A DNA stretch of 64,000 nt, from positions 62,088 through 126,087 of the forward strand of contig JBHLMP010000002.1 of assembly GCA_048938025.1 (NCBI GenBank), in the 5' to 3' direction. Each line of letters opens with the position of its first letter. Positions within the stretch are counted from its first letter, which is position 1. The DNA is from Promethearchaeota archaeon. Its GTDB lineage: Archaea > Asgardarchaeota > Lokiarchaeia > Sigyniarchaeales > SOKP01. The notes beneath the pieces are model-generated. The model was not told the DNA's origin, made no database searches, and was given only the letters and a program-made list of their open reading frames with translations. The position numbers were made by a program, and so were the translations under genes. Shown piece after piece: positions 6,538 to 62,641 of this stretch.

Positions 6538-6954
6538 TTATTCTCCTTGAATTTGAACGAAAACTCGTCTATTCCGAGGTCCATCATATTCAGCAAACAT
6601 TATACCCTGCCAGGTCCCAAGCATTAATCTTTTCTTATGGATTAATAGTTCAATCGAATGCCCTGTAAGGGAACATTTAATGTGGGCATCAGAGTTTCCC
6701 TCTCTATGCTTAAAAGAGTAGCCTAATCCTCCACCATTCGGGATTAGTTTGCCTAAATAATTACTAATATCCTTTATTACCGAAGGATCTGCGTTTTCAT
6801 TAATAGTTATACCAGCAGTAGTATGAGGGACAAAAACTCTACAAACTCCTTCTTCAACATTTGAATCTCTAAAAATCTTACGGATCTCATTTGTAATATC
6901 TAAAAGAATTTCTCTTTCTGGGGTTTTTATTCTAAATTCCTCAAATAATATCAT
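6538..6954 (-). CDS. yjbQ: YjbQ/UPF0047 family protein
   Basis: PHTTAGITINEN, EGNSDAHIK, LGTWQGIMFAEYDGPR. Confidence 0.9.
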   Translation of the reverse strand: MILFEEFRIKTPEREILLDITNEIRKIFRDSNVEEGVCRVFVPHTTAGITINENADPSVIKDISNYLGKLIPNGGGLGYSFKHREGNSDAHIKCSLTGHSIELLIHKKRLMLGTWQGIMFAEYDGPRNRRVFVQIQGE

Positions 6955-7000: not shown

Positions 7001-7768
7001 CTAATCATTAAAAGAACCGTGTTTTCCTTTACCTCCTGTGAAAGCAATACTTCCTTTCAAATATTCACCACTCTCCAGAGTTTTTAATCCATATTCAAAT
7101 TCATTACCCATAGCATCTTCTATATTTAGATTAAATTGCTCATAAGTGGATAGTCGATCATTTCTCATGCAAGTTTTTGGAAAAGCAGCTATTTCTCTTG
7201 CTAACTTCTCTGCTTCTTGTCTTGATTGCCCTTCCTCAACAATCTTATTGGCGAGACCCCATGAATATGCTTCTTCGGCTGTTATTGGGCGTCCAGTAAG
7301 AATCATATCCATAGCTCGACTTAATCCTATGAGTCGAGGTAAGCGTACAGTTCCTCCATCAACTAACGGGACACCAAATCTACGATTAAACACACCAAAT
7401 ATAGTATTCTTCTCAACAACGCGTATATCACACCATAATGCAAGTTCAAGACCACCAGCAACAGCATATCCTGCTACAGCGGCAATTACAGGTTTAGATA
7501 ATCTCATCCTGGTAGGCCCCATAGGACCATCTCCTTCTTTCTCGATTAGATTTCCATAACCATCAACAATCGCTTTTAAATTAGCACCAGAACAAAAGGT
7601 TCCATTATCACCCCAAAGAATAGCTACTTCAGCTTTTTCATCCTTCTCAAATTCTCGAAATGCATCAGCGAGCGCTTTTGCTGTAGGACCATCTACTGCA
7701 TTTTTAACTTTAGGATTATTTATAATAACCGTATATATAGGATATTTCCTTTCAATCATAACTACCAT
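7001..7768 (-). CDS. Enoyl-CoA hydratase/isomerase (crotonase family)
   Basis: FCSGANL, KPVIAAVAGYAVAGGLELALWCD, RLPRLIG, LTGR. Confidence 0.9.
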   Translation of the reverse strand: MVVMIERKYPIYTVIINNPKVKNAVDGPTAKALADAFREFEKDEKAEVAILWGDNGTFCSGANLKAIVDGYGNLIEKEGDGPMGPTRMRLSKPVIAAVAGYAVAGGLELALWCDIRVVEKNTIFGVFNRRFGVPLVDGGTVRLPRLIGLSRAMDMILTGRPITAEEAYSWGLANKIVEEGQSRQEAEKLAREIAAFPKTCMRNDRLSTYEQFNLNIEDAMGNEFEYGLKTLESGEYLKGSIAFTGGKGKHGSFND

Positions 7769-8146: not shown

Positions 8147-9172
8147 ATGGTTATAAAAACCAATATAACTGAAATGTTAGGCATTAAACATCCTATAATT
8201 GCAGCACCAATGGGACCCTTTTACACAACAAAACTAACAATAGCTGTTTCTGAGGCCGGTGGTTTAGGTGTTTTAAGCCATATAACATTAAGTGAAGGAG
8301 TTACGTTAAACCAAATAAAAGAAAGTATGAAAACAGTAGTTGACTATACTGATAAGCCTTTTGGACTGAATATTAGAACAGCAACACTACAACCTGATGC
8401 GATAAAATTATGTAGACAAATTCCAAGATTTATAATGAATAATCCTAAAATCAAGGATCAATGTAATTATTTAATTACTAGCGCAGGATCTCCAAAATTA
8501 TTATACAACAAGTATTTTCAGGCATTGAAAGAATGTTCAAATATTAAGCATTTTCATGTAATACCTTCCTTAATGCTAGCTAAAAAAGTAATAAAGTATG
8601 GAGTTGATGGAGTGGTCGCAACTGGACATGAAGGTGGTGGTCATCAATCATATGAAAATACAAGCACATTAATTCTATTACAACAAATTAGAAAAGAATT
8701 ACCAGAAGTTCCTGTGATTGCCTGTGGAGGGTATGCTACTGGAGAAGGATTAGCATCAGCTTTAGCGATGGGAGCTGGGGCTATTTCAATGGGAACAAGA
8801 TTTATTGCATCAAAGGAATGTGAATTCCATGAAAATTATAAAAGTAAGGTCAAAAGTTCAACTGTATCTGATATTAAATTAGTTACAGGGGTTTTTGGAC
8901 CTGCTCGAGTATTGAAGAATAGTTATACGGAAAACAGTACTACAGTTTCAAATAAAACAGAAAAAAGAGCTGAAGAAACATCAATCTCAGTTATAAGAGA
9001 GGATGTAATTAGATTAGAAAAAGCCTATAAGGGAAATGTCGATGACGGTATTGTTCTTTTAGGACAGAGTTGTGGGTTGGTAGATGATATTAATAGTGTC
9101 TCAGACATTATTAATTCAATTGTATATAATGCTGAGGAATGTTTAAAGAGTGCATACAACATGATAACATAA
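8147..9172 (+). CDS. Nitronate monooxygenase / FabK-like FMN oxidoreductase
   Basis: PII.APM, AVSEAGGLG, GHEGGGH, PVIACGG, MGTRF, GQSCGL. Confidence 0.85.
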   Translation: MVIKTNITEMLGIKHPIIAAPMGPFYTTKLTIAVSEAGGLGVLSHITLSEGVTLNQIKESMKTVVDYTDKPFGLNIRTATLQPDAIKLCRQIPRFIMNNPKIKDQCNYLITSAGSPKLLYNKYFQALKECSNIKHFHVIPSLMLAKKVIKYGVDGVVATGHEGGGHQSYENTSTLILLQQIRKELPEVPVIACGGYATGEGLASALAMGAGAISMGTRFIASKECEFHENYKSKVKSSTVSDIKLVTGVFGPARVLKNSYTENSTTVSNKTEKRAEETSISVIREDVIRLEKAYKGNVDDGIVLLGQSCGLVDDINSVSDIINSIVYNAEECLKSAYNMIT

Positions 9173-9206: not shown

Positions 9207-9422
9207 ATGTCTGATTCCGTGGTTATGTCAATCTTTCAAAAAACTAATATCGCAGAAATAAATAGCATGAGATTATTCGATTATGAAAATTCTCTATATA
9301 ATTATTTTAGTGACAATAATAGTTCAAACTTTTGTCAACGGTATTTTAAATGGTTTGAACATACTAAATTTGATAAAACCAATAATTCTTTCTTAAGTGA
9401 TTTTGAAAAAAATTTTATGTGA
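9207..9422 (+). CDS. Hypothetical small protein
   Basis: 71-codon ORF with ATG and an upstream GAGGGA. No recognisable motif. Confidence 0.35.
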   Translation: MSDSVVMSIFQKTNIAEINSMRLFDYENSLYNYFSDNNSSNFCQRYFKWFEHTKFDKTNNSFLSDFEKNFM

Positions 9423-9465
9423 AATTAGAATTAATTGAAGGAAAAAAAGTATTAATTAAAAAATT

Positions 9466-10554
9466 TTATTTTTGATTTTTCAAATACTCATTCATTTCCA
9501 CAAAACTACTCGTTCTTATTAATGCAGCTTTAAGAAATTGGAAACCAATATCATATGTCGATCCATCACCTCCGATATGAATAATCCAAGGAATTTCATG
9601 ATCATATAGCCCTTTAGCTTTCATAATCTTTTTCGCAGTGGAGATAGCTTCAGCGACAGTAGCACCAGATTCAAATAAGTGGTGTACCCAAGGAACATTC
9701 CATGAGGTCACGTTATCTTTTGAAGTTGAGACCTCTGAACAACTAGTGTTATTCACATAAATTATGTTAGTATTAGCAACCGCAGTCGCAGCTGTTGCCA
9801 TTTGATTTAATACCATTCCGGCACCACAACCAGGACATAAACCATGACCTGGTTGTAGATGAGTTTGAGGCTGTAATTTCTTCCGATTAATTCTATAAAC
9901 TTCAACAGGTTTCTCAGCACCGAAATTTTCTATTAATTTTTTCAGTTTATTATTTCTTTGTTCTGTTAGATAAATAATTTCATCAATCTCTTTTTCCATA
10001 AATTTAGGTTTAAATAGATGCCTAAATTTGCCCATCGATTTAAGATACTCTACAAATTTTTCTTTATCAATATCTAATCCGCGATAATAGGTAAAAACAG
10101 GGACGCCATCTTCTACTCTGACTGTATAAAGCGGCCAATATCCACAATCAGTTGCCAATTTTGAGATTTTGAGAGTATCAGCAGCACCATGTCTCCACCC
10201 TCTCATACAATCCGAATATGCTTGAATGAAAGCAGATCCATCCGATTTAAGAGCGTCTGCTACCTTTCCCATAAAATCATTAGGATATGCTGGATTTACA
10301 GTAGCTAAGAAGAGCTTTATTGTCCCATAGAAAGCAAATGGGGTAACTAAATCTTGCTTGACACCTATTTTACCTGGGATCTTTTCTCCCGCAGGACCAG
10401 TCGTAGTGGAAGCATAAGGTGGTGTAGCTCCACTTTCTTGAATTCCTGTATTCATAAAAGCTTCATTATCGTAGTTGAAAAATAGAACATTAGATTTTTC
10501 ATTTCGGACTAAAATATCCTCAAAATTAATTACATTCCTCTCTGGTTTTGACAT
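9466..10554 (-). CDS. porB: Pyruvate/2-ketoisovalerate:ferredoxin oxidoreductase beta subunit, circularly permuted
   Basis: All PorB motifs are present (YDNEAFMNTGIQ, GHGLCPGCG, TSC, GGDGSTYDIG), but the normally C-terminal half comes first. Confidence 0.9.
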   Translation of the reverse strand: MSKPERNVINFEDILVRNEKSNVLFFNYDNEAFMNTGIQESGATPPYASTTTGPAGEKIPGKIGVKQDLVTPFAFYGTIKLFLATVNPAYPNDFMGKVADALKSDGSAFIQAYSDCMRGWRHGAADTLKISKLATDCGYWPLYTVRVEDGVPVFTYYRGLDIDKEKFVEYLKSMGKFRHLFKPKFMEKEIDEIIYLTEQRNNKLKKLIENFGAEKPVEVYRINRKKLQPQTHLQPGHGLCPGCGAGMVLNQMATAATAVANTNIIYVNNTSCSEVSTSKDNVTSWNVPWVHHLFESGATVAEAISTAKKIMKAKGLYDHEIPWIIHIGGDGSTYDIGFQFLKAALIRTSSFVEMNEYLKNQK

Positions 10555-10558
10555 TTTA

Positions 10559-11785
10559 TTAATCCACCCCGTATATTTTTTCTTTAGTTTCTCTCACTCC
10601 TAGATAATGATATAGTTGTCCCTTCATGTCTGTAACAGCTTCCATTTTCTTTTTCGCTACATTAAACTCATCTCTCGTAACATCACGTCCACCTAAACCA
10701 ACTATAAAACTTCTAAATAAAGTGCCTAGTGGATATAACGCAGAGGCAACAGACATTGAAAATGGTGGTAGCATCCCATTTAACGAGTCGCTTTTTTCTA
10801 ATAGAATTAATTTTTCTATATTATGGTCTTCCACAATTTTTCGAAATTCTTCATATGGAAATGGTCGATATGCTCTTATTTTAATTAAACCGACATCCTT
10901 GTTTTTTGTCATCCAACTAATAATATTACCGCATACTGAGCCCATTGTACAAAAAGCAGTTTTTGAAGAGTTGTCTAAATTATAAGTTTCAATCAGATTA
11001 TAGGCTCTTCCCGTTTCGGCTTCGAACTTTTTGAAGACATCAACCATTTGACCTAAAACTGGTTGTTTTGCTTCTTCCAACTGTGCTCTTCCTTCCATAA
11101 AATAAGAAGGAGTAACAATACCACCCCATGTACCGGGTTTTGAAGGATCAATTGTATGTCTTGGCTTTTTAGGGGTCATTTTTTTGACTCTTTCATCTGG
11201 AATTAGTGTTAGTTTCTGTACTGAATGAGATATTATAAAGCCATCATGTACAAATATAGTTGGAAATAATGAGTCTTCTGAGATCATAACAGAAATGATT
11301 GCAGCATCATAGGTCTCTTGAACATTTTCAGATACAATTATATTCCAACCAAGTTCAGAATTCGTTTGAGTATATTCCCAAGAATTCCAAATAGATAAAT
11401 TCGGTGAATTAAAAGCCCGAGCAGAAATCATCATCGTTAAAGGCAATCTCCACCCTACAGCCATAGGAAGAGCTTCTGTCATCAATAAATAACCTTGACT
11501 TGCGGTAGCTGTAAAAGCTCTTGCTCCTGCTGCACAAGCAGCAGTTGAAAAACTTATTGCAGCTAATTCGGATTCTACATTTACAAATGCTGCTTTTAAT
11601 CTTCCGTTATGAACAACATCGGATAATCCTTCAACTGATTGGGTCTGAGGGGTGATAGGAAAGGCGCATATGACATCTGGATCAGTTTGAGTAACTCCCC
11701 CGGCAACTGCATAATTTCCAATCATAGTAGTTACTATAGGTTCCTTAATTTCCTTAAAAAATATCCTCATCGGTTCTATTGACAT
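10559..11785 (-). CDS. porA: Pyruvate/2-ketoisovalerate:ferredoxin oxidoreductase alpha subunit
   Basis: GNYAVA, FPITPQT, VESE, ARAFTATASQG, DGFIISH, GLGGRD. The ATG at 11785 has a GAGGTGA SD. Confidence 0.9.
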   Translation of the reverse strand: MSIEPMRIFFKEIKEPIVTTMIGNYAVAGGVTQTDPDVICAFPITPQTQSVEGLSDVVHNGRLKAAFVNVESELAAISFSTAACAAGARAFTATASQGYLLMTEALPMAVGWRLPLTMMISARAFNSPNLSIWNSWEYTQTNSELGWNIIVSENVQETYDAAIISVMISEDSLFPTIFVHDGFIISHSVQKLTLIPDERVKKMTPKKPRHTIDPSKPGTWGGIVTPSYFMEGRAQLEEAKQPVLGQMVDVFKKFEAETGRAYNLIETYNLDNSSKTAFCTMGSVCGNIISWMTKNKDVGLIKIRAYRPFPYEEFRKIVEDHNIEKLILLEKSDSLNGMLPPFSMSVASALYPLGTLFRSFIVGLGGRDVTRDEFNVAKKKMEAVTDMKGQLYHYLGVRETKEKIYGVD

Positions 11786-11799
11786 TTTTTTCACCTCAT

Positions 11800-12818
11800 C
11801 TATTCTGGAGCGGCACAAGCTGCTGGTCCTTGTTTTAATCGTTTGCTAATAGCTTCAACAGGACAGATTTCTAAACAATTTTGGCATGATTTACAATGCG
11901 ATTGATCAATACCTTTCATATGCCATAAACCATCCTCACCTTTTTCTCTAATAATAGCAAAATCAGGACAGATATACCAACATTGAGCACAATCAGTACA
12001 TTTTTCTTCATCCCAAATCATATCCCATTCACCCCATGAACCAGTATTTACTTGCTTGCTACCTATCTCTATAACATCTTCATCGCAATACCACACACCA
12101 GCTTTATCTACTTCCTTATACCCCGGTAATCCTGGAAAAACTTGTTGCCAAGAAACTTTTGTATCTTCAGCAAAATTAATTGTAGGAGCATTTGAAGTCT
12201 CATATATACAAGTTTCTTCATAAGCTTTTTTTATAGCTGCTACATTTTTACCAGCGATTTCACCTTTAAACCGACGCAGTATTGCATCAGCTAAAGCATC
12301 CATAGAGAAGATTGGAACCACATGAATAAGTGCTCCTAAAATTATTGTATTAGTTATATTTCTGCCAAGAATTTCCATTGCAATATTTAATGCATCAATC
12401 GTTGCGATATTTATATCTTTTCGACCAACAATATCTTGAATAGTCCTTTGATCCATGACAGTATTTACTATAAGCCATCCACCGGGAGCCAATCCTGCAG
12501 TAACATCTATTTCACCAAGAAGAGAGGGATCTAATACTGCGACTGCATGTGGAGCATAAACTTGCTCATTGCTTCTTACTAAATCATCATTTGCACTTAA
12601 ACGTACATAACTTTCAGTTGGAGATCCCATTCTTTCGGCTCCAAATAAGGGTTGACAAACACCATACCCGTAAAATGCTTCCACACACAGATTTGAGGCG
12701 GTCACTCCGCCTTGTCCTACGGGAGAGAGAGAAACTCTCAAATCTCTCCGCGGGCATGAAAGCGTAAATTTATAACATTCGATTTTAATATTTCTTTTAA
12801 TTGTTCTGGAGTTAACAT
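11800..12818 (-). CDS. porG: Fused POR gamma-delta subunit, interrupted by a 29-nt insertion (candidate intron); 329 aa if spliced
   Basis: Exon 1 (ATG 12818) reads MLTPEQLKEILKSNVINLRFHARG. Exon 2 reads GQGGVTASN...FGAERMG...NTIILGA, then NTGSW and two CxxCxxCxxxCP ferredoxin motifs (PorD). Confidence 0.85.
12717..12745 (-). other. 29-nt hairpin insertion, candidate BHB/BHL-type archaeal mRNA intron
   Basis: Breaks the frame with an in-frame TGA. Central helix GCGG/CCGU has 3-nt bulges AGA and AGG. Cutting after the second nt of each bulge gives CGC GGA GGA CAA (R-G-G-Q). Confidence 0.6.
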
Positions 12819-23374: not shown

Positions 23375-24259
23375 TCAATCACTATCTTTAATTAATTTAC
23401 CAATTTTCTTATTTTGCGCTTTAATTCGAAGTTGCTCTATGTTTTTGCTAAATCCTTCTCGCTCCTCTTCAACAAATTCCCCACATATAATAATTCCTTT
23501 CTTGAAATCAAAAGTTGCTTGATGAGGGGGCCAATCAACTTTAATCCTAATTTGCTTTTTTAACCATTCTAGCATCTCTACAGCATCGCCTAATCTATTT
23601 TTTGACCCATATTGGACAAAACAAGGAGCTAGTACTTCTATAAAACTGAATCCTTGATTGTCTATGCATTTAAAAATACTTTTTTGTAATCTAAGGGTGT
23701 CGTATCCAGGCCATCTAGCGACATATGTAGCTCCTGCAGCTGCTGCTAGACTTACCAAATTGAAGGGAGGTTCCACATTCCCATATGGTGTTGTTGAAGT
23801 GATGTCGCCAATCTGACTTGTAGGGGCCACTTGTCCTCCAGTCATGCCATATATATTGTTATTTATACAGAGAACAGTTATCTCTACATTTCTTCTAGCA
23901 GCATGGATAAAATGATTCCCTCCTATTGCAAAGAGATCTCCATCTCCCGACAAAACAATAACCTTTAATTTAGGATTTGCTAATTTTATACCCGTCGCAA
24001 AGGGTATAGCTCTCCCATGTGTAGTATGGAAAGCAGGTGCTTTAAAACAGCCACTAGATCGACCTGTACATCCTATGCCGGATACAATAGCATAATCTTT
24101 AGATGTGAGGCCTCTTTCTTTTAGACAGCTTGTAATTGATGTAATTACTGTTCCAATTAAACAGCCAGGACAAAAAATGAAACGATGTAAATTTAACATA
24201 TCAATTAAGGGATGACCAAGTGCTTCAGTAGGGATTGATATTTGATCTGATGGACTCAT
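23375..24259 (-). CDS. korB: 2-oxoacid:ferredoxin oxidoreductase beta subunit
   Basis: CPGC, SGIGC, HGRA, GDGD, NNNIYGMTGGQ in canonical order. Confidence 0.92.
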   Translation of the reverse strand: MSPSDQISIPTEALGHPLIDMLNLHRFIFCPGCLIGTVITSITSCLKERGLTSKDYAIVSGIGCTGRSSGCFKAPAFHTTHGRAIPFATGIKLANPKLKVIVLSGDGDLFAIGGNHFIHAARRNVEITVLCINNNIYGMTGGQVAPTSQIGDITSTTPYGNVEPPFNLVSLAAAAGATYVARWPGYDTLRLQKSIFKCIDNQGFSFIEVLAPCFVQYGSKNRLGDAVEMLEWLKKQIRIKVDWPPHQATFDFKKGIIICGEFVEEEREGFSKNIEQLRIKAQNKKIGKLIKDSD

Positions 24260-24262
24260 ATT

Positions 24263-62038: not shown

Positions 62039-62641
62039 TTATACCTTCCCTTTAAACTTATCAGCAATCAGTTCTAGATATGATTTCCTTATAGATTCTT
62101 CTTTTTTAATTCCAAACAAACTTAAGAAATCAAAAAGAACTTCGCGGTAAATATCTAAATTTTCTATTGAATCAGAAATAATTTCAACTTCTATAAAGTG
62201 CTGTTTTAAAATAGGTAAGTAATCAACTAAAGCCTTAATATTATAATTCTTGAATTTAAAATCATATGATTCTCTTTCTTTTTTTACAGTAAAGATCTCT
62301 TGAAATCCCAATGCATTCAATAAATCTTTCGTTTTATCAAGATCTTCAATTTTTATTTCTATTTCTTCGCGAGATTTTGTAGTAGTATCAACTTTTTTCC
62401 CTTTATAAGTAAAGAAATATGCTATATTTTCAACAATTTCCTTATTAACTTTATTGAATTCAATAGATTTCCTTAGTCTTAATGCTTCATCAGTTTTTTT
62501 GAAGTCTCTTAACCCTCTTGGCAAATTAAAGTAAGTATCCTCATGAAGTAATGATATTTTATAGACTCCATTGTTTTCTTCGAATTGCTTTCTTATCAGA
62601 TTAGGATCTGAGATCTTAACTTTAATTTCTACTTCGAGCAT
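62039..62641 (-). CDS. cyaB: CYTH domain protein (class IV adenylate cyclase-like)
   Basis: EVEIK, D.YF, EALRLR, TYKG.K, REE.E, K.RE, F.EVE, SYLEL. ATG at 62641. Confidence 0.9.
   Translation of the reverse strand: MLEVEIKVKISDPNLIRKQFEENNGVYKISLLHEDTYFNLPRGLRDFKKTDEALRLRKSIEFNKVNKEIVENIAYFFTYKGKKVDTTTKSREEIEIKIEDLDKTKDLLNALGFQEIFTVKKERESYDFKFKNYNIKALVDYLPILKQHFIEVEIISDSIENLDIYREVLFDFLSLFGIKKEESIRKSYLELIADKFKGKV

Follow-up and report, generated by a model that had tools for sequence, protein, structure and literature searches.

The 64,000-nucleotide stretch analyzed here (the window; positions 62,088 to 126,087 of contig JBHLMP010000002.1, assembly GCA_048938025.1, from a Promethearchaeota archaeon of the class Lokiarchaeia) carries a minus-strand open reading frame (ORF), 9466-10554, that encodes a 362-residue protein in which the two halves of PorB, the beta subunit of a 2-oxoacid:ferredoxin oxidoreductase (OFOR), occur in swapped order. 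The normally C-terminal half comes first, the normally N-terminal half comes last and the thiamine diphosphate (ThDP) motif is divided between the two ends of the chain. We consider it very probable that the protein is a functional circularly permuted beta subunit of the pyruvate:ferredoxin oxidoreductase (PFOR) or 2-oxoisovalerate:ferredoxin oxidoreductase (VOR) type and that the permutation had a single origin at or near the base of the class. An initial annotation, made from the DNA letters alone, had described the gene as a circularly permuted PorB; PDB chains, the NCBIfam PorB model and a hidden Markov model (HMM) of canonical beta subunits all align to it in the swapped order. Feature coordinates are collected in Table 1.

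In phmmer comparisons with PDB chains, residues 23-193 of the window protein aligned with residues 119-282 of the Methanosarcina acetivorans PFOR beta chain 9bt4_C (93.3 bits) and residues 226-347 aligned with residues 3-115 of the same chain (68.5 bits). The beta chain of oxalate oxidoreductase (OOR), 5c4i_C, was likewise swapped (22-187 with 130-290 and 225-347 with 9-127). NCBIfam PorB (NF008819) matched in two stretches with 205.3 bits, below its cut-off of 405, and Pfam TPP_enzyme_C matched residues 18-111 alone (profile positions 70-150), a marginal pass at 23.5 versus 21.9. The canonical beta HMM, which we built from 51 sequences (11 Asgard sequences plus 40 library representatives), split all 21 permuted proteins tested in the same manner. 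On the window protein, model positions 124-305 fell on residues 20-209 whereas positions 6-128 fell on residues 226-352. Because the E-values of the two stretches were 1e-18 to 1e-25 and the arrangement recurs in 120 of the 120 homologues listed, the swapped pattern is, by these alignments, inexplicable by chance. Both segments are homologous to the parent family, are swapped and lie in one uninterrupted ORF, as in a natural permutant, and neither colinearity with the family model nor a contiguous ThDP motif was found in the comparisons with PDB chains, NCBIfam PorB or the canonical HMM. The half-by-half search that had been suggested as a check returned the halves in swapped order by phmmer, HMM and BLAST. 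A KorB-like frame within the window, 23378-24262(-), has the canonical order that the initial annotation ascribed to it, with CPGC at residue 30, GDGD at 105 and NNNIYGMTGGQ at 133. What the initial annotation described in the sequence agreed with the analysis on each point examined.

The break maps to canonical HMM positions ~124-128 ('ghdil'), between the GDG helix and the DNE..N strand. The earlier placement of the break within the TPP (ThDP) motif thus holds and could be refined to the helix-to-strand loop: the GDG triplet (residues 329-331) sits 32 residues before the C-terminus, and the other side of the motif occupies residues 27-39. The ThDP motif is a beta-turn-alpha-beta unit in which the loop from helix to strand lies at the end away from the diphosphate. 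By analogy the canonical 'RGHD' loop, in which the chain is opened, should be distant from the cofactor and a place where chain ends are tolerated; the cut would therefore fall in the motif by sequence, yet at a tolerant place. In the former C-terminal half (residues 23-209), the strand VLFFNY and NYDNEAFMNTGIQ come first, C116 lies further on and the canonical C-terminal helix is last. The former N-terminal half (residues 226-347) contains CPGC (C240 and C243), C272 and GGDGSTYDIGFQFLKAALIR. The continuous linker proposed earlier corresponds to residues 210-225 (NFGAEKPVEVYRINRK), which join the old C-terminus to the old N-terminus. The protein also has an N-terminal extension, residues 1-22, for which no significant match to canonical PorB was found with the canonical HMM or in a profile test, and a C-terminal tail, residues 348-362.

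A word-index search returned 240 proteins at E<=1e-5, and the figures given here refer to the best 120 of the 240. These proteins, drawn from assemblies of NCBI, JGI, ENA and Logan, are ~360 residues long and 55-88% identical to the window protein. When the two halves were compared with them by BLAST, every one had the permuted order. Taxonomic spread was surveyed in 399 other genomes of the phylum, with a full-length match defined as E<=1e-100; this is the Asgard survey that the initial annotation had recommended. Full-length copies turned up in 106 of the 134 genomes that share its family, in 17 of 19 others of the order and in 5 of 7 others of the class, in total 128 of the 160 other genomes of the class. 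The single-contig genomes G135, G143, G189 and G279 are among those that carry it. Outside the class, a full-length copy was seen in only 1 of 239 genomes, G075, where it lies on a 2,801-bp contig, is 89% identical to the window's genus and belongs to a bin with 8% contamination; this copy was probably mis-binned. The permuted gene is real and class-wide and is not an assembly artefact.

The DNA of the locus was also compared with Logan contigs from four runs. These are contigs of short unitigs, none of which covers the whole 2.3 kb, and the uncovered parts (for example around 9405-9480) carry no weight. Two contigs bridge the linker codons: X2 record 12 (0 differences), from a further sample of the same study, and X5 record 28 (23 differences), from a different study. 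The junction between the alpha stop and the beta start was bridged by a contig of a third study (X4 record 21, 0 differences); an X1 contig also bridges this junction, although it was not counted as it may derive from the source sample. A misassembly at the linker, named earlier as one result that would overturn the proposal, was not borne out, as contigs of two studies bridge the linker codons.

The residues expected of a working beta subunit are retained. C116, C240, C243, C272 and G329-D330-G331 are invariant in 46 of 46 aligned members, which extend down to 54% identity, as are N27, Y28, D29, N30, E31, A32, N35, T36, G37 and Q39. The conserved motif residues align with the canonical ThDP/Mg residues in both phmmer and HMM alignments, and the cysteines align with the canonical HMM columns 'aCaGCg', 'tgClev' and 'apCptgw'. 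The initial annotation had noted that the Fe-S cysteines were kept, and the four in question are presumably cluster ligands, a role we take from known structures. Selection was estimated from 12 same-genus genes (66 pairs), which gave a mean rate of nonsynonymous substitution (dN) of 0.039, a mean synonymous rate (dS) of 1.11 and a dN/dS of 0.035, the ratio being approximate because a dS of ~1.1 is near saturation. By segment the values were 0.07 for the N-terminal extension (59 usable pairs), 0.025 for the old C-terminal half, 0.07 for the linker (50 pairs), 0.034 for the old N-terminal half and 0.015 for the tail (24 pairs). The protein is under purifying selection with all segments constrained, and the direction of the result is beyond doubt. 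The invariant residues and the low dN/dS support the earlier suggestion that the enzyme is functional, which remains a predicted function.

The partner genes argue in the same direction. Genes for a fused gamma-delta subunit, an alpha subunit and the permuted beta subunit are consecutive on the minus strand, overlapping or 4 nt apart, with the beta ATG 4 nt past the alpha stop codon. The best family matches of the operon proteins are PorC, PorA and PorB; alpha scores best on PorA_Arch (308 versus a cut-off of 550), and the gamma-delta protein also matches OxalOxreddelta (NF045790) over residues 36-299. Among seven distant members fetched (52-61% beta identity), the full gamma-delta, alpha, beta order was seen in five (L017, L018, L021, L022 and L023); at the threshold used L019 showed alpha and beta only and L020 beta only. 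The full order was also found on the 2.8-kb G075 contig (L024), and 12 same-genus loci, cut short, showed alpha and beta plus the 3' end of gamma-delta in the same order.

Structures were modeled using alignments made in this analysis. The AlphaFold2 (AF2) monomer, from the 46-sequence alignment, had a predicted local distance difference test score (pLDDT) of 79.7 and a predicted template modeling score (pTM) of 0.85. In separate half-domain matches by VIA-align, model residues 19-209 superposed on residues 984-1170 of Moorella thermoacetica PFOR (6cio_F; Z 10.5, root-mean-square deviation (rmsd) 3.4, 159 residues) and residues 227-357 on residues 2-264 of Helicobacter pylori OorB (8ys5_C; Z 4.6, rmsd 2.3, 113 residues). 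The N-terminal extension was modeled with a short strand (6-10) and a helix (11-15), the linker as a strand at 212-221 and the tail as a prolongation of the post-GDG helix. A complex of alpha (408 residues, 18-row alignment) with permuted beta (46 rows) gave a median interface score (ipSAE, interaction prediction score from aligned errors) of 0.81 over three runs versus 0.00 for the best of three controls. The mark set for this score was reached by 58 of 80 solved complexes and by 2 of 110 mismatched pairs. The alpha/beta runs showed at least 95% contact agreement and a partner pLDDT of at least 85. Note that the score may in part be recall of the family interface, because like complexes (PFOR and OOR) have already been solved. 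The modeled interface involves alpha residues 64-90 (including the invariant E71-S72-E73) and beta residues 262-322 and 339-358, the contacts of this alpha stretch being with beta 278-322 and 339-358. On the beta side these belong to the old N-terminal half, the post-GDG helix and the new tail, of which residues 351, 355 and 357-358 touch alpha in the model. The strong constraint on the tail would fit a role in alpha contact.

Taken with the known architecture of the family, the data suggest the following arrangement. The subunit would consist of the ThDP diphosphate-binding (PP) domain and the proximal [4Fe-4S] cluster. The break in the canonical chain would lie in the loop that connects the post-GDG helix with the DNE..N strand, and ~16 residues would link the old termini. 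The ThDP/Mg site would then be rebuilt from the C-terminal GDG-helix (residues 323-354) together with the N-terminal strand and NTG.Q loop (residues 23-39), and both halves would supply the four cluster cysteines. The subunit would pair with the alpha subunit encoded 4 nt upstream, with electrons predicted to pass to ferredoxin via the fused gamma-delta subunit. A single event at or near the base of the class named Lokiarchaeia or Promethearchaeia would have produced the permutation, and there the permuted operon seems to stand where other Asgard classes have the canonical gamma, delta, alpha, beta operon. The swapped order and its conservation, the single clade, the purifying selection and the conserved operon are observed, whereas ThDP binding, catalysis and the shape of the rebuilt motif are predictions.

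Several observations weigh against a functional permuted subunit, among them the near-saturated dS mentioned above. In the AF2 model residues 32-71 are poorly defined (pLDDT <50); this is the ThDP-side loop after NTG.Q, which we take to border the cofactor and the partner in solved enzymes. The best Foldseek matches, 9bt4_C and OOR beta chains, had TM scores of only 0.37-0.45, low values being expected because a sequential aligner was applied to a permutant. Foldseek and VIA-align are both sequential aligners and gave half-domain matches only, so that the whole-chain fold is putative and the packing of the C-terminal helix against the N-terminal strand a prediction. Two joints were found in single low-depth contigs that skip 256 nt (10155-10412; side 27) and 155 nt (10593-10749) of the locus; both are away from the linker and the break, and joints of this kind at 90% likeness are often contributed by other organisms. 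The operon is dispensable: two same-genus genomes that are 99% complete, G179 and G200, have neither the permuted beta nor its alpha, and their best alpha is at most 37% identical, which indicates a real operon-level absence. The absence from G207 is a contig break, with a 90%-identical alpha at bases 25-1248 of the contig. A few relatives (G163, G273, G274, G159 and G123) have stops in beta. Finally, the complex may not be made in this genome unless an insertion is removed or translation restarts, because the partner gamma-delta gene is interrupted by a frameshifting insertion (described below).

These points bear differently on the alternatives. That canonical porB pieces were joined in the wrong order during assembly or binning might be suspected of a metagenome-type assembly of 88 contigs with 5% contamination, the more so as the Logan contigs over the gene are short unitigs, none spanning the whole stretch. 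However, the same order recurs in every one of the 120 homologues listed, from many assemblers and sources, and in 128 of 160 genomes of the class including single-contig genomes, 4 nt separate the alpha stop from the beta ATG, the flanks hold no remnant of porB and contigs of another study bridge the linker, so we give an artefact virtually no credence. A decaying rearranged paralogue, non-functional and tolerated beside canonical por/vor operons, would account for the complete relatives that lack the operon, the in-frame stops and the interrupted gamma-delta gene, and the genome does encode two canonical beta paralogues (C67 and C7). It is nevertheless a very improbable account given a dN/dS of ~0.035 with each segment constrained, invariance of the catalytic and ligand residues across 46 sequences and conservation of the three-gene operon. 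Moreover, the stops of G163, G273 and G274 and the frame break of G159 all lie in one shared 30-31-nt insertion and are not scattered.

A third alternative is that the protein still pairs with alpha but has been neofunctionalized for another substrate, chemistry or mode of cofactor handling, its long stem branch (1.32 substitutions per site) recording that adaptation. Scores below the NCBIfam equivalog cut-offs (PorA_Arch 308 versus 550 and PorB 205 versus 405), a gamma-delta fusion that resembles the OOR delta subunit over the NF045790 match and the new, constrained terminal extensions, of which the tail is modeled touching alpha, would all be consistent with such a change. In contrast, every residue that an ordinary OFOR beta subunit uses for ThDP, Mg or the cluster is invariant, the best family matches are still PorA, PorB and PorC and the neighborhood has no pointer to another pathway. 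We regard a new activity as unlikely; note that it overlaps the preferred explanation, a permuted PFOR/VOR-type beta subunit, which commits to no particular substrate.

Comparison with characterized enzymes shows how far the protein departs from its relatives. M. acetivorans PorB (9bt4_C) is the best match of both halves (162.6 bits) and has the same ThDP residues and the same four cysteines. Like it, the window beta subunit is encoded beside alpha, and the modeled alpha/beta interface supports the pairing. The two differ in that the window chain is swapped at canonical ~115/119 and is 362 rather than 296 residues long, having gained a 16-residue linker, a 22-residue N-terminal extension and a 15-residue C-terminal tail. 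The second-best beta match (150.6 bits) is Moorella thermoacetica OOR (5c4i/5exd/5exe), which is also encoded by three genes and has domains III and V combined in a single subunit. However, OOR beta is colinear rather than permuted and the window proteins score far under the OOR equivalog cut-offs (181 versus 590 and 79.5 versus 230). Within the phylum the nearest canonical relatives found are the gamma, delta, alpha, beta operons of other Asgard classes (L025-L032), in which the beta halves are 40-45% and alpha 31-37% identical. These have the same gene order as the permuted operon, although in their beta subunits the N-terminal half precedes the C-terminal half. In L025, L027, L031 and L032, the four loci whose frames were compared, gamma and delta are separate genes, as their matches fall in different reading frames, whereas in the permuted operon gamma-delta is one ORF. 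Judged from these alignments, the Lokiarchaeial operon differs twice from its canonical counterparts, in that gamma and delta are fused as in OOR delta and beta is permuted.

To our knowledge, the GDG-x-N motif of ThDP enzymes has, from its definition onward, been regarded as a single contiguous beta-alpha-beta unit. In a literature search whose scope excluded subscription journals and supplements, neither a permuted OFOR beta subunit nor a cut within the PP domain was found; as far as searched, therefore, the topology is new while the enzyme biology is known. By topology the sequence is not that of a plain PorB/VorB member, because colinearity and the curated PorB cut-off both failed, although by predicted mechanism it is an ordinary OFOR beta subunit. 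Permutation on a different scale has been described in the ThDP superfamily, where the ThDP decarboxylase group is described as a circular permutation of the dehydrogenase/transketolase group (bioRxiv 10.1101/2021.03.21.436335). Those two arrangements (PP-PYR-x versus PYR-x-PP, PYR being the pyrimidine-binding domain) differ in the order of whole domains, with GDG-x(~30)-N left contiguous, whereas here the cut lies within the PP domain and the motif.

For a tree of 72 proteins, made by a quick method with a midpoint root, the permuted sequences were re-ordered for alignment. The canonical side included the first 40 of 60 representatives (270-345 residues), fused, intein-bearing and shorter matches being left out. 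The 21 permuted rows group in one clade (Shimodaira-Hasegawa-like approximate likelihood ratio test (SH-aLRT) support of 100), whose stem measures 1.32 substitutions per column. L030, from another Asgard class, plus P0125 form the sister of this clade at the weak SH-aLRT support of 80, and the two canonical beta paralogues of the genome itself fall in a different clade. The best 150 matches in a 50%-identity library, scanned in full, comprised 2 permuted proteins, 123 canonical proteins and 25 with one half only; beyond these lay 1,196 weaker matches, among which an independent permutation may exist. As the 2 permuted entries are P0121 (53% identical, Helarchaeota-named) and a fragment, the whole permuted family appears on sequence clustering to be one narrow cluster. 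The half-only proteins (23 with the C-terminal half and 2 with the N-terminal half) were considered as possible split genes and set aside; they look like truncated gene calls, with starts that fall in mid-motif or lack Met, or with tails that are frameshifted. A single origin at or near the base of the class would be the simplest reading of these data.

The route to the permutation is less clear. The initial annotation had suggested that the similar ends ILVRNEKSN and ALIRTSS may be relics of a duplication, a suggestion that was not supported, as ungapped profile-profile tests gave results not above chance (p=0.35 for residues 1-22 versus 318-350 and p=0.68 for residues 348-362 versus 18-45). 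Unrelated control segments scored equally well or better, although power is low on segments this short. The HMM footprints of the two halves overlap by 0-7 positions (an overlap is seen in 15 of 21 proteins and none in the other 6), which is within normal local-alignment edge extension. A search for longer homologues found no beta-beta or alpha-beta fused form, which is weak evidence; its two matches were P0126, an intein-bearing canonical PorB, and P0271, a fused PFOR. In our judgement the chances are about even that the permutation arose by duplication and truncation, with the relics erased on the long stem. Fission followed by fusion is a credible but less probable route, and other routes take the remainder.

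Three breaks in this region of PorB fall within ~18 residues of one another: the permutation break at 'RGHD', an intein site between FTYV and CYDNE and an insertion site between NTG and IQ. The intein, of ~530 residues and the LAGLIDADG type, is carried by the canonical PorB proteins P0126, P0133 and P0159 (852-859 residues; also by the fragment P0218), where its insertion point in the ThDP-motif strand lies ~5 residues away from the site of the permutation break. The P0126 cluster includes two members with the name Candidatus Altiarchaeales. One could speculate that this stretch of porB is a landing site for spliced or self-splicing elements and that the permutation was a by-product, an element having split the gene into two expressed halves that were later re-fused in swapped order. 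Such a fission and fusion, as opposed to duplication and deletion, would account for the lack of relics, but we think it improbable.

Short insertions interrupt two genes of the permuted operon. In the window, a 29-nt insertion, 12718-12746(-), lies between two GGA codons in the RGGQG of the gamma-delta motif RFHxRGGQG. It shifts the frame, brings an in-frame TGA and folds as a hairpin, and a TTG ORF restart lies inside it. The mechanical gamma-delta ORF therefore starts at TTG 12741, and the conserved N-terminus (MLTPEQLKEILKSNVINLRFHARG, 24 residues), encoded by 12747-12818, is cut off by the insertion. This is probably the intron candidate that the initial annotation placed in the same operon, and the observation is real: gamma-delta does contain a 29-nt frameshifting insertion. 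The site is uninterrupted in 15 of 15 permuted-operon relatives inspected and in three canonical Asgard operons. In the predicted fold the junctions are on opposite strands, 4 bp apart (GCGG/CCGU), beside a GAGAG/CUCUC hairpin (z = -2.1). A second element interrupts the permuted beta gene in four genomes from three genera (30 nt in G163, G273 and G274, 31 nt in G159). It occupies one identical site, between NTG(37) and I/V38-Q39, where the window's own gene has no insertion. The beta element brings an in-frame TGA, or a frameshift in G159, and forms a 7-9-bp hairpin with compensatory changes between genomes. The minimum-energy folds of both elements place the junctions on opposite strands with a 3-4-bp helix between them, flanked by an exon-exon helix and an inner hairpin. 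Fold z-scores were -2.1, -2.8, -0.4 and -2.1. As we read these folds, both elements resemble a relaxed bulge-helix-bulge splice motif, which makes the beta element a candidate mini-intron of a protein-coding gene. The alternative of translational bypass, as in T4 gene 60, was considered and set aside: the beta element has no matching landing codon, and a GGA...GGA hop in gamma-delta would lose one Gly of the conserved RGGQG. Splicing would fit the mini-insertions better than bypass. No Rfam family reached its gathering score anywhere in the 64-kb window.

The permuted gene has consequences for annotation as well as for protein chemistry. Among the best 120 of the 240 homologues, all 26 NCBI-named copies are called 'hypothetical protein', whereas 15 JGI-named copies are called 'pyruvate/2-oxoacid:ferredoxin oxidoreductase beta subunit'. 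The OFOR thus seems to miss its beta subunit in automatic metabolic reconstructions of Lokiarchaeia, because curated models overlook the protein and NCBI names it hypothetical; the 2-oxoacid and ferredoxin metabolism of these organisms is central to syntrophy models of eukaryogenesis. In this genome the function of the enzyme also hinges on the fate of the 29-nt gamma-delta insertion. Present in 128 of 160 genomes inside the class versus 1 doubtful case in 239 outside it, the permutation is a synapomorphy-like character for one Asgard class. A ThDP unit assembled from both chain termini would be a natural experiment on the folding of a cofactor site and a possible template for engineering split or permuted ThDP enzymes.

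Table 1 Features of the permuted beta-subunit gene and its operon, and insertion loci in relatives. Coordinates are those of the window except where a locus is named.
Feature	Coordinates	Strand	Basis
Complete permuted beta-subunit ORF, 362 residues + stop (9466-9468)	9466..10554	-	Coordinates re-translated
N-terminal extension, residues 1-22, MSKPERNVINFEDILVRNEKSN	10489..10554	-	dN/dS 0.07; re-translated
Former C-terminal PorB half, residues 23-209	9928..10488	-	Canonical HMM 124-305
Predicted N-side of ThDP/Mg motif, NYDNEAFMNTGIQ, residues 27-39	10438..10476	-	Alignment, re-translation
C116, putative fourth Cys of proximal [4Fe-4S] site (canonical 'apCptgw'), invariant	10207..10209	-	Alignment, HMM
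Linker from old C-terminus to old N-terminus, residues 210-225, NFGAEKPVEVYRINRK	9880..9927	-	dN/dS 0.07
Former N-terminal PorB half, residues 226-347	9514..9879	-	Canonical HMM 6-123
CPGC (C240, C243), two putative cluster ligands, invariant	9826..9837	-	Alignment
C272, putative third cluster ligand (canonical 'natgClev'), invariant	9739..9741	-	Alignment, HMM
GDG, residues 329-331, predicted first half of ThDP/Mg motif, invariant	9562..9570	-	Alignment
C-terminal tail, residues 348-362, TSSFVEMNEYLKNQK	9469..9513	-	dN/dS 0.015 (24 usable pairs)
Alpha subunit (POR_N + PFOR_II); likely start ATG 11785 (M12), 408 residues	10559..11818	-	Profile matches
Fused gamma-delta subunit (POR domain + 2x[4Fe-4S] ferredoxin)	11800..12818	-	Profile matches
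Beta insertion, G163	L038:3335-3400		
Beta insertion, G274	L040		
Beta insertion, G273	L037:6263-6328		
Beta insertion, G159	L041:1452-1518		

Some further features of the family and its loci were seen. In the distant permuted proteins P0094, P0097, P0102, P0105 and P0107, which are order-level relatives, the tail ends in a conserved Y-C-x-D-x-Y-C-E with two cysteines; this ending is absent in the window's family, where the tail reads MNEYLKNQK. Three relatives have degenerate partial copies of the old N-terminal half, situated 1-2.5 kb downstream of the intact gene: L034:3089-3400 (G178; 76% over 104 residues), L007:3605-3712 (G183; 51% over 43 residues) and L033:3752-3961 (G258; 43% over 70 residues, with stops). 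Three other apparent extra copies were rejected, L035 as a gene cut by a contig end and L036 and L037 as fragmented contigs of one bin. G258 also has a 715-residue open frame (L033:1133-3196, C34) in which alpha (query residues 7-330) continues into permuted beta (residue 20 onward); this frame is either a fusing deletion or an assembly chimera. Downstream of the operon in the window are genes whose products, judged from their translations, we take to be UPF0047/YjbQ-like, 6538-6954(-), enoyl-CoA hydratase-like, 7001-7768(-), and nitronate-monooxygenase-like, 8147-9172(+).

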